This document shows, in pieces, positions 55,854 through 57,529 of a DNA stretch of 60,474 nucleotides (position 1 is the stretch's first letter; each line of letters starts with the position of its first letter). The notes under the pieces were generated by a model that saw nothing but the letters and a program-made list of their open reading frames with translations, had not been told where the DNA came from and made no database searches. Source of the DNA: a virus (taxonomy: Duplodnaviria; Caudoviricetes); IMG/VR virus record IMGVR_UViG_3300020365_000015, positions 1 to 60,474 of that record; one strand, 5' to 3'. The translations under genes and the position numbers were made by a program.

Positions 55854-56276
55854 ATGAGAGATTTTAAAGAATTCAGAGAACTCTGTGAAGCAAAACGTGG
55901 TCTCTACGCAAATATCCACGCTAAACGAAAAAGAGGAGAAGCACCTGCGCGTCCTGGTAGTAAGGACTACCCCGCCAAGGATGCTTTCAAAAAGGCGGCG
56001 AGGACTGCCAAAGAAAGTTTTGAACTCGAAGAAGCAGCCTGGACCCGAAAGGAAGGCAAGAAAAAGTCTGGAGGTCTTAATGAGAAGGGACGTAAATCTT
56101 ACGAAAGAGAAAATCCTGGAAGCGACCTTAAAGCACCAAGCAAGAAGGTTGGAAATCCCCGTCGCGCATCGTTTTGTGCTCGAATGAAGGGCATGAAAAA
56201 GAAGTTGACTTCCAAGAAAACCGCCAACGATAAGGACTCACGTATTAACAAATCCTTACGTGCCTGGAATTGCTGA
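55854..56276 (+). CDS. basic protein (DUF6321-like), probable head internal protein
   Basis: CTAAATA 55822-55828 upstream; GLYANIHAKR, GGLNEKGR, RRASFCARM, SLRAWNC motifs. Confidence 0.8.
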   Translation: MRDFKEFRELCEAKRGLYANIHAKRKRGEAPARPGSKDYPAKDAFKKAARTAKESFELEEAAWTRKEGKKKSGGLNEKGRKSYERENPGSDLKAPSKKVGNPRRASFCARMKGMKKKLTSKKTANDKDSRINKSLRAWNC

Positions 56277-56311
56277 AACAACTAGATATAATTAGATTGA
56301 GCGTCTTTACA

Positions 56312-56461
56312 ATGATGAAATTCCAGACGGATGATATTACAAGACTAATACGTGCTTGTCGTATGTATCAGGATCAAACTGGTTCTGAATATATGTGGGA
56401 GCAATACGAAAAACTTATAGACAAATTAGAATACTACGAAGAAGAGCATAACGAAGAATAA
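56312..56461 (+). CDS. hypothetical protein
   Basis: TATAAT 56287-56292 upstream; RLIRACRMYQDQTGSEYMWEQY; TAATG coupling. Confidence 0.75.
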   Translation: MMKFQTDDITRLIRACRMYQDQTGSEYMWEQYEKLIDKLEYYEEEHNEE

Positions 56462-56684
56462 TGTACAGGGAACCTCACCTACAGAAAAAGTCAGACGAGT
56501 GTGCTGCTTTGTGGTGGGAGTGGCACAGACTCTGGATAAAAAAGCATTAGGTGCGCCAGAGGCGAGAAAAAAATGGTCCCAATGTGTTAGTGAATTTGGG
56601 GAAATGGTAAGTCAGGAAGTCAAAACAAACCCACGCTACAATAAGCTACAGATAGACATTGGTAAAGAAGAACCACCTAGATAA
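56461..56684 (+). CDS. split small gene: 29-aa frame-0 ORF (56461-56550) continuing in the -1 frame to 56684 via A_AAA_AAG
   Basis: MYREPHLQKKSDECAALWWEWHRLWIKKH*; -1 frame KKALGAPEARKKWSQCVSEFGEMVSQEVKTNPRY...; heptamer 56538-56544. Confidence 0.6.
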
Positions 56685-56702
56685 AACAGTTGTATAAGTT
56701 TT

Positions 56703-57026
56703 ATGAAGTTCTTCTTTGCACTTCTTGCTACACTTTTTCTTGCTACACCTGCTTGGGCTGTAGATGTAATGATGGGTGCTAATGGCAACCTAGTTTTTGA
56801 ACCAGCAGAGGTTACGATTGCGGCAGGAGAATCAGTCCATTTTGTAAACAACATGCTACCTCCTCACAATGTGATTGTTGAGGATCATCCTGAACTCGGA
56901 CACGAAGGTCTCGCTATGATGCCTGGCGAAGAGTTTGACGTTGCATTCCCAGATGCAGGAGACTATACTTACTGGTGTGGTCCTCACAAGGGAGCAGGCA
57001 TGATCGGTACAGTACATGTAGAATAA
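56703..57026 (+). CDS. petE: plastocyanin
   Basis: Signal peptide ending AWA; PPHNV and YWCGPHKGAGM type-1 copper ligands. Confidence 0.97.
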   Translation: MKFFFALLATLFLATPAWAVDVMMGANGNLVFEPAEVTIAAGESVHFVNNMLPPHNVIVEDHPELGHEGLAMMPGEEFDVAFPDAGDYTYWCGPHKGAGMIGTVHVE

Positions 57027-57529
57027 TGAAAAAATTCAACACTGTTGTTTTAGACATCACTGTTGCAATACTAGACTTCCTCTATCAAGGAAGAGAATAT
57101 CCACGTTTTTGGGTGCTTGAGGAAATCGCTCGGGCACCCTATTTTGCGTTCTTAAGCGTATTGCATTTCAGAGAAAGTATGGGACTACGTGGTCCTGAGC
57201 ATCTATATTTGATGAAAGAACACTTCGATCAATCAGTCAATGAAACAGAACATCTGGAGTATATGGAGAGCAGGGGCGGTAATGCTTATTTTATTGATCG
57301 CTTTGTCGCCAAGCACCTCGTCCTTATCTATTATTGGGTCAATGTGGTTTATTACTGGGTGGCTCCTCGCTCTGCATACCATATGTCTTACGAAGTAGAA
57401 ATTCATGCGGCAGAAACTTACGCAAAGTTTCTTGCCTTTAATGGACACGATGACAAGATCCTTGAGATCTTGAATGACGAACTTACACACGCTAGGGAAC
57501 TAGAATTAGCAATGGAGAAGATTAAATGA
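57026..57529 (+). CDS. ptoX: plastoquinol terminal oxidase
   Basis: ATG 57026; RFWVLEEIARAPYFAF, NETEHL, EIHAAETY, DELTH di-iron motifs. Confidence 0.95.
   Translation: MKKFNTVVLDITVAILDFLYQGREYPRFWVLEEIARAPYFAFLSVLHFRESMGLRGPEHLYLMKEHFDQSVNETEHLEYMESRGGNAYFIDRFVAKHLVLIYYWVNVVYYWVAPRSAYHMSYEVEIHAAETYAKFLAFNGHDDKILEILNDELTHARELELAMEKIK

Follow-up and report, generated by a model that had tools for sequence, protein, structure and literature searches.

The 60,474-base stretch of DNA analysed here, referred to as the window, is an IMG/VR virus record that is estimated to be 31% complete and that represents a fragment of a T4-like cyanomyovirus (Kyanoviridae), its nearest named relatives being Synechococcus myoviruses such as Sf-CH1b and S-RSM4. 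The subject of this analysis is a small gene in the window that is split between two reading frames (Table 1) and is flanked by a hypothetical gene on one side and by petE, the gene for plastocyanin, on the other. A PTOX-like ORF and gnd follow petE, and the same layout is found in annotated relatives, although the position of the split gene relative to the petE-PTOX-gnd-zwf cassette differs among phages, since it heads the cassette in some of them and is located after zwf in others. A search of positions 56000-57300 against Rfam (E <= 1) returned 0 matches, and between 55800 and 57100 no terminators were seen and promoter-like sites were not in excess.

An earlier note, made from the letters of the window alone, had proposed that this gene is expressed by a programmed -1 ribosomal frameshift, and the individual elements on which this proposal was built were confirmed in the sequence. 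The ATG at 56461 overlaps the stop codon of the upstream gene (TAATG) and thus provides a coupled start, the frame-0 ORF of 29 codons ends with ATA AAA AAG CAT TAG, and the heptamer A_AAA_AAG is in X_XXY_YYZ phase, with its first A being the third base of codon 26 and with 17 nt between it and an upstream GGGAG. Likewise, the -1 frame is open from GCA at 56544 to the TAA at 56682-56684, and the 46 codons of this segment together with the 28 codons before the shift give the predicted product of 74 residues. The heptamer on its own does not occur above chance, as AAAAAAG was counted 8 times on both strands of the window compared with 12.7 times expected from shuffled sequences; it is the conservation of the heptamer in relatives that exceeds chance.

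Table 1. Features of the split gene and its downstream neighbour, with positions counted from the first base of the window.
Feature	Position	Strand	Description
Frame-0 ORF	56461..56550	+	29 codons and TAG; helix 1, the N-terminal part of the predicted trans-frame protein, is encoded by codons 1-28
Candidate 5' stimulator	56512..56523	+	Codons 18-21, TGG TGG GAG TGG; G-rich Shine-Dalgarno-like core GGGAG at 56516-56520
Slippery heptamer A_AAA_AAG	56538..56544	+	Proposed site of tandem -1 slippage of a tRNA-Lys pair
Frame-0 stop TAG	56548..56550	+	Two codons past the slip site; ends the 29-residue unshifted product
-1 frame segment	56544..56684	+	46 codons and TAA; loop and helix 2 of the predicted trans-frame protein
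Candidate stem, 5' arm GCGCCA	56553..56558	+	RNAalifold; begins 8 nt past the heptamer
Candidate stem, 3' arm TGGTCC	56574..56579	+	Same 6-bp stem; 15-nt loop
petE (plastocyanin gene)	56703-57026		Downstream of the split gene

Homologs of the gene were collected by BLAST searches of phage records, by a protein-pattern scan of IMG/VR and by a second IMG/VR scan. The protein-pattern scan, in which the 61-residue ORF of the -1 frame served as the query, yielded 50 stretches and 47 confirmed loci, while the second scan relied on a block of 23 bases located some 65 nt past the site, was hence blind to the heptamer, and yielded at least 80 loci. The loci were anchored on this 23-base block and on the conserved gene start and were then classed, with class A comprising genes that need a -1 shift and class B comprising genes with one uninterrupted ORF. 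The heptamer-blind sample of 80 loci contained 36 class A genes, 43 class B genes and 1 truncated locus. Pooling of this sample with the first set and with the divergent isolate genes of S-CAM1, Sf-CH11 and Syn19 gave a set of distinct genes, 42 of class A and 35 of class B, and five isolates added later (S-CAM22, S-BM3, S-H25, S-IOM18 and Sf-CH1b) were also found to belong to class A, so that 47 class A sequences were compared. When a class B protein was used in a tblastn search, the family was detected in 56 phage records, all of them from Synechococcus phages or Syn2 and each counted at one place, of which 39 gave two-frame matches (20 named phages) and 17 gave one-frame matches (12 named phages). 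The site was checked by sequence in 13 of the 20 named two-frame phages, which span nine genera of the Kyanoviridae (Gibbetvirus, Scyllavirus, Yushanluvirus, Charybdisvirus, Nilusvirus, Anaposvirus, Pontusvirus, Alisovirus and Tefnutvirus). In addition, there is a divergent second subfamily with a Pro-rich C-terminal tail (WNEPPP-like), whose members lie downstream of zwf and upstream of an endonuclease/thermonuclease gene instead of next to petE, and which carry the same heptamer at the same offset.

The frame was found to be split in 47 of 47 class A sequences (42 distinct genes and the 5 further isolates, from at least nine genera), and the heptamer A_AAA_AAG is present in phase at nt 78-84 of the gene in all 42 distinct genes as well as in 5/5 further isolates. 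The length to the slip site, within the 29-codon ORF, is identical in every class A relative, and the class A alignment is free of gaps over the first 186 nt. Among 26 distinct class A genes the mean pairwise diversity upstream of the heptamer was 0.217, 0.124 and 0.409 at frame-0 positions 1, 2 and 3, respectively, while downstream of the heptamer it was the third position of the -1 frame that showed the highest diversity (0.339 vs 0.107 and 0.169 at the other two positions). Similar results were obtained when parsimony changes were counted on a tree of 29 class A genes with a total length of 3.62, with 2.36, 1.28 and 4.67 changes at frame-0 positions 1, 2 and 3 upstream and 1.61, 1.10 and 4.35 changes, in -1-frame order, downstream. 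As judged from these substitution patterns, both frames are under purifying selection and the frame of constraint switches exactly at the heptamer.

The conservation of the heptamer itself exceeds the requirement of the encoded amino acids. On the same tree, 0 parsimony changes were found at all 7 heptamer columns compared with about 4.5 on average at the remaining third positions, and only 4 of the 55 third-position columns of the coding sequence are unchanged. Codon 26 is CGA, CAA, GAA, ATA, CTA or TTA, and thus specifies Arg, Gln, Glu, Ile or Leu but ends in A in every gene. The third positions of the codons for Lys27 and Lys28 show 0 changes, the pair being always AAA AAG, whereas AAA and AAG are mixed at Lys9 and Lys10 (7 and 4 changes, respectively), and in 5 class B genes with a homologous KKH motif the Lys-Lys dicodon is spelled in three ways. 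The invariance of G84 does not count as independent evidence, since this base is also the first base of codon 29 in the -1 frame (Ala or Asp). Moreover, class A forms one side of a weakly supported branch (66/93), and much of its conservation therefore goes back to a single ancestor, albeit over 3.6 substitutions per site. A stop codon at the position of the frame-0 TAG is present in 41 of the 42 class A genes and in 3 of the 5 further isolates; it has been lost in S-H25 and S-IOM18 (Tefnutvirus) and in one IMG/VR gene, all of which retain the heptamer and the split frame, so that both features persist independently of the stop. An in-frame N-terminal motif was present in 0 of 52 clusters of -1-frame ORFs from a library of 5.8 billion proteins, and no A7-type revertants were found among the 120 class B matches listed of 211. 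Since the insertion of one A would be a single homopolymer mutation, the fact that no in-frame revertant was found argues for selection of the split state. The alignment across cyanophages that had been suggested as a check of the proposal therefore came out in its favor, with a conserved split frame, an invariant heptamer and purifying selection in both frames. Together, the conservation and the frame switch support the core of the earlier reading, according to which a programmed -1 shift would join the 28-codon frame-0 part to the 46-codon -1 part.

The existence of the class B genes allowed an assessment of the joined protein. In the 35 distinct class B genes the N-terminal part matches frame 0 of the window and the C-terminal part matches its -1 frame, and a class B query retrieved 211 similar full-length database proteins encoded by single ORFs, all of them unnamed (120 of them listed). 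Moreover, 13 residues are invariant in an alignment of 66 class B sequences, and all of these are also invariant in class A, where frame 0 accounts for 7 of them and the -1 frame for the other 6. Since a sister group encodes the same protein in an uninterrupted ORF, the trans-frame product is, by this comparison, a real protein. Uninterrupted homologs had been named beforehand as an observation that would speak against recoding; such homologs indeed exist in the form of class B, but as a sister group they indicate that the joined protein is real and not that the window contains an error. Comparison of the relatives thus demonstrates, at the level of sequence, that the frame of constraint switches, that the heptamer does not vary and that the joined protein is real.

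An AlphaFold2 model of one class B member (L035) contains helices at residues 5-26 and 32-56 with a mean pLDDT of 83, and predicts a helical hairpin in which each helix carries a single invariant Cys. The helix boundaries of this model place the slip site in the inter-helix loop, the length of which varies from 14 to 18 residues in class B. In two class B genes, L051 and L052, this loop contains A_AAA_AAG in phase at nt 87-93 of the gene, and CAT comes next; both appear to represent the ancestral form of the split genes and might yield a -1 by-product. As these genes already possess the heptamer and the CAT in the loop, the split may have originated from a small deletion beside a pre-existing slippery dicodon. 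A probable origin of the class A site is an indel beside a Lys-Lys dicodon, in a loop of variable length, after which selection would have maintained it.

Family and structure searches gave little information on the function of the protein. The -1-frame ORF of the window matched PHROG 8483, a family with no assigned function, with E = 9e-29, and the C-terminal parts of class B proteins matched it with E-values from 1e-15 to 1e-19. The ORF of the window, including part of its out-of-frame N-terminal stretch, aligned to positions 3-57 of this 58-position profile, while class B proteins aligned only from positions 6-15 onward; it thus seems that PHROG 8483 lacks helix 1, does not take account of the recoding and has inherited an N-terminus from the wrong frame. 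The homologs in S-SM2 and Syn19 are labelled as the cyanophage cluster 'T4-like GC 972'. No Pfam match was found above cut-offs, a Foldseek search of the PDB gave nothing with E <= 0.001 (best 0.71), and the ESM Atlas provided no usable match. A wide structure search with VIA gave a best Z of 8.3, a value within the range of generic helical hairpins. Our guess is that the protein is a small redox- or metal-responsive factor tied to the petE/PTOX/gnd/zwf cassette.

From the sequence signature, we consider it likely that this small cyanomyovirus gene is expressed via a conserved programmed -1 ribosomal frameshift. Translation would start at the ATG at 56461, and 28 codons encoding helix 1 would be read until AAA occupies the P site and AAG the A site (56538-56544). 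Both tRNA-Lys(UUU) would then slip one base back onto A_AA and A_AA, and decoding would resume in the -1 frame with GCA at 56544 and continue for 46 codons, which encode the loop and helix 2. The shift would yield a hairpin of two helices, 74 residues long and with an invariant Cys in each helix, while ribosomes that have not slipped would terminate two codons on and release a 29-residue peptide consisting of helix 1. That the shift is ribosomal, rather than taking place at another level, is what we infer.

According to Atkins et al. (PMC5009743), A_AAA_AAG is highly shift-prone in E. coli, the sole tRNA-Lys of this bacterium forms a stronger pairing with AAA than it does with AAG, and a C on the 3' side tends to promote shifting. 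The base 3' of the heptamer is C in 40 of the 42 class A genes. In a 2.58-Mb marine Synechococcus chromosome (G001) one tRNA-Lys with the anticodon UUU was found and none with CUU, with 48/48 tRNA matches typed; this chromosome is a single metagenome-assembled genome that was reached via a mis-binned phage contig and is not a proven host. Having a single tRNA-Lys (UUU) is what makes A_AAA_AAG slippery, and this holds for G001.

In addition, two elements near the heptamer are candidates for a stimulatory role. Codons 18-21 include a Shine-Dalgarno-like core (GGAGG or GGGAG) in 40 of 42 class A genes vs 14 of 35 class B genes, and the codon for Arg19 is AGG in all 33 class A genes that have Arg at this position. 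This element, located 17-20 nt upstream of the heptamer in class A, may function as a 5' stimulator. Downstream of the heptamer, RNAalifold predicted a 6-bp stem, all 5 core pairs of which can form in 35 of the 42 class A genes, with one compensatory pair. In the alignment 95% of the cells of this stem are paired vs 30-44% when the partner is slid, but the support for the stem is modest, because four of its six pairs are equally dictated by the codons for Ala-Pro and Trp. The stem is common to one class B subgroup, and in the copy of the window one of the pairs is a C-C mismatch; the fold of window positions 56538-56640 was no more stable than that of shuffled sequences (z = +1.15). The 6-bp stem is accordingly listed here as a candidate that may act as a downstream stimulator. 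A different hairpin, CGCC-AGA-GGCG, had been proposed in the earlier note; it is present at 56554-56564, 9 nt past the heptamer, but does not qualify as a conserved stimulator, as it forms in only 12 of the 42 class A genes.

The assumption made by GenBank annotators corresponds to a split gene, in which the 29-aa ORF1 in frame 0 and an ORF2 in the -1 frame with its own GTG, TTG or ATG start would be translated separately and their products would assemble non-covalently. Such -1-frame ORFs are annotated in records, at least one ATG, GTG or TTG precedes the heptamer in the open -1 frame in 40 of the 42 class A genes, and S-CAM3-type genes have an ATG two codons before the heptamer. However, most of these potential starts arise incidentally from conserved Trp codons, xxG TGG being read as GTG, and they vary between lineages; 2 of the 42 class A genes lack any ATG, GTG or TTG before the heptamer in the open -1 frame. 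Since variation upstream of the heptamer follows frame 0 and not the -1 frame, the annotated N-termini are not under protein-level selection. Separate starts would also leave both the invariant heptamer and the A-ending codon 26 unexplained, and we regard this arrangement as improbable. Termination followed by reinitiation was rejected, as there is no -1-frame start codon near the frame-0 stop.

Alternatively, the two frames could be joined by transcriptional slippage, with RNA polymerase adding an extra A in the A6/A7 run so that part of the mRNAs would contain an uninterrupted ORF. One inserted A would lead to an identical protein, and the run consists of seven A in those genes in which codon 26 is CAA or GAA (15/42). 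Known bacterial sites of transcriptional slippage consist of 9 or more A or T, a length that is not reached in any of the 42 genes, and in 27 of them the run is only A6 (codon 26 being CGA, ATA or CTA). Moreover, what is conserved is the phased heptamer and not the length of the run, which has been lengthened in no lineage. In contigs of 3 DNA metagenomes and 1 metatranscriptome library no base was inserted into or deleted from the A-run, and two of the DNA contigs bridge the run with at least 31 nt on each side. The metatranscriptome contigs likewise show A6 without insertion, although the RNA contig reaches only 23 nt past the site and contigs hide rare variants, so that these data are compatible with rare A7 transcripts. 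On balance, slippage of the polymerase appears distinctly improbable.

A sequencing or assembly error, or a recently inactivated and decaying gene, is scarcely credible: although single-base indels in homopolymers are the commonest artefact and a common mutation, and although uninterrupted homologs exist, the A-run is in an identical state in 13 isolates that were sequenced independently, in dozens of contigs from IMG/VR and in independent metagenome contigs, purifying selection acts on both halves of the gene over a total tree length of 3.62, and no revertants were seen among 52 clusters of -1-frame ORFs or among the 120 class B matches listed of 211. The alternative of a miscounted A-run (A6 instead of A7), which the earlier note itself had raised, is thereby excluded by the 13 isolates and the independent metagenome contigs.

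With a programmed ribosomal frameshift as the preferred reading, the cyanophage gene can be compared with known systems. It resembles the tau/gamma site of E. coli dnaX in its identical in-phase heptamer and in the single tRNA-Lys(UUU) of the type of host, and also in its candidate stimulators, a G-rich Shine-Dalgarno-like element 5' of the heptamer and a stem that begins a few nt 3' of it. In contrast to dnaX, where the shifted ribosome stops almost at once and a shorter product results, the shift in the cyanophage gene would lead to a longer, conserved protein, with termination in frame 0; in addition, the upstream element lies at a distance of 17-20 nt compared with the classical dnaX spacing of about 10 nt, and the stem has only 6 bp. 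In the IS3 family (IS911, IS150) an A_AAA_AAG-type site is located near the end of a short upstream ORF, a frame-0 stop follows soon after, and the functional long product is the -1 fusion of orfA and orfB. The cyanophage gene shares the position of the site near the end of a short ORF, the stop shortly past it and, as proposed, the long -1 product. However, unlike these elements it encodes no transposase and is not a mobile element, its product would have 74 residues, an overlapping long orfB is lacking, and uninterrupted orthologs exist in sister phages. Similar to the G/GT system of phage tail assembly chaperones, it would represent a conserved phage -1 shift by which a single start serves for both a short and a long product, but the locus is found beside a hypothetical gene, petE, PTOX and gnd and not between the genes for the tail tube and the tape measure protein.

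To our knowledge, no conserved -1 frameshift is known in T4-like cyanophages. No report of the site was found in the literature searched, including passages of PMC2908710, PMC5009743, PMC3037559 and PMC10885494, although supplementary cluster tables (e.g. that of PMC3037559) could mention the cluster. From its sequence features the site would be a new, well-supported member of the known class of A_AAA_AAG -1 frameshifts. In GenBank/RefSeq records of S-RSM4, S-H9-1, S-H9-2, S-CAM3, S-SM2, S-CAM1 and Syn19 the gene is shown as an ORF of 46-66 residues starting from a GTG or ATG in the -1 frame, and in the records of S-BM3, S-H25, S-IOM18 and Sf-CH1b it has no annotation. An evident annotation slip of another kind concerns the neighboring gene in S-SCSM1 (NC_070962.1, 127683-128006), where the product of the plastocyanin gene is named 'tail tip protein Tal' and 'plastocyanin (petE)' appears only in the note. 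Furthermore, petE-bearing contigs that are filed under metagenome-assembled genomes of Synechococcus, Euryarchaeota and Bacteroidota resemble cyanophage contigs binned into cellular genomes; one of them comprises 193,981 bases and has its own tRNAs (Leu-TAG, Arg-TCT, Thr-TGT and Leu-TAA).

A separate observation concerns the 23-nt block at 56607-56629 (GTAAGTCAGGAAGTCAAAACAAA) in the -1-frame part of the gene, which is nearly invariant, including its synonymous sites, in petE-adjacent genes of both class A and class B. The codons for Ser51 (AGT), Gln52 (CAG), Glu53 (GAA) and Thr56 (ACA) are the same in 26/26 genes, and the exact pattern was found at the at least 80 IMG/VR loci of the second scan and is missing from the divergent subfamily that is not adjacent to petE. 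The depth of metagenome contigs spikes at this block, and no Rfam match to it was found. The conservation of its synonymous sites suggests an element that acts at the nucleotide level, for instance one with a role in regulation or recombination at the boundary of the petE-PTOX-gnd-zwf cassette.

T4-like cyanophages rank among the most numerous viruses of the sea. An unlikely extension of the frameshift reading is that the shift serves as a tuned regulatory device, the efficiency of which would be set by the state of the host tRNA-Lys(UUU), i.e. its charging or wobble modification, or by ribosome load. Such a device would determine the ratio of the 29-residue peptide to the full Cys-bearing hairpin, and would thereby couple the activity of a small redox- or metal-responsive factor, encoded at the head of the petE-PTOX-gnd-zwf cassette, to host physiology. 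The sensing of tRNA-Lys supply and a disulfide-capable long form, both raised in the earlier note, are speculative. If true, this would explain the retention of the split state in phages of at least nine cyanophage genera, as opposed to its one-step reversion in the homopolymer. The sister clade, which has the same protein in one frame, provides a natural control, and the two groups together offer a clean system for asking why a frameshift is kept though one base would remove it. In addition, the finding corrects the annotation of this gene and draws attention to a small Cys-bearing protein that travels with the phage genes for photosynthetic electron transport and the pentose phosphate pathway.
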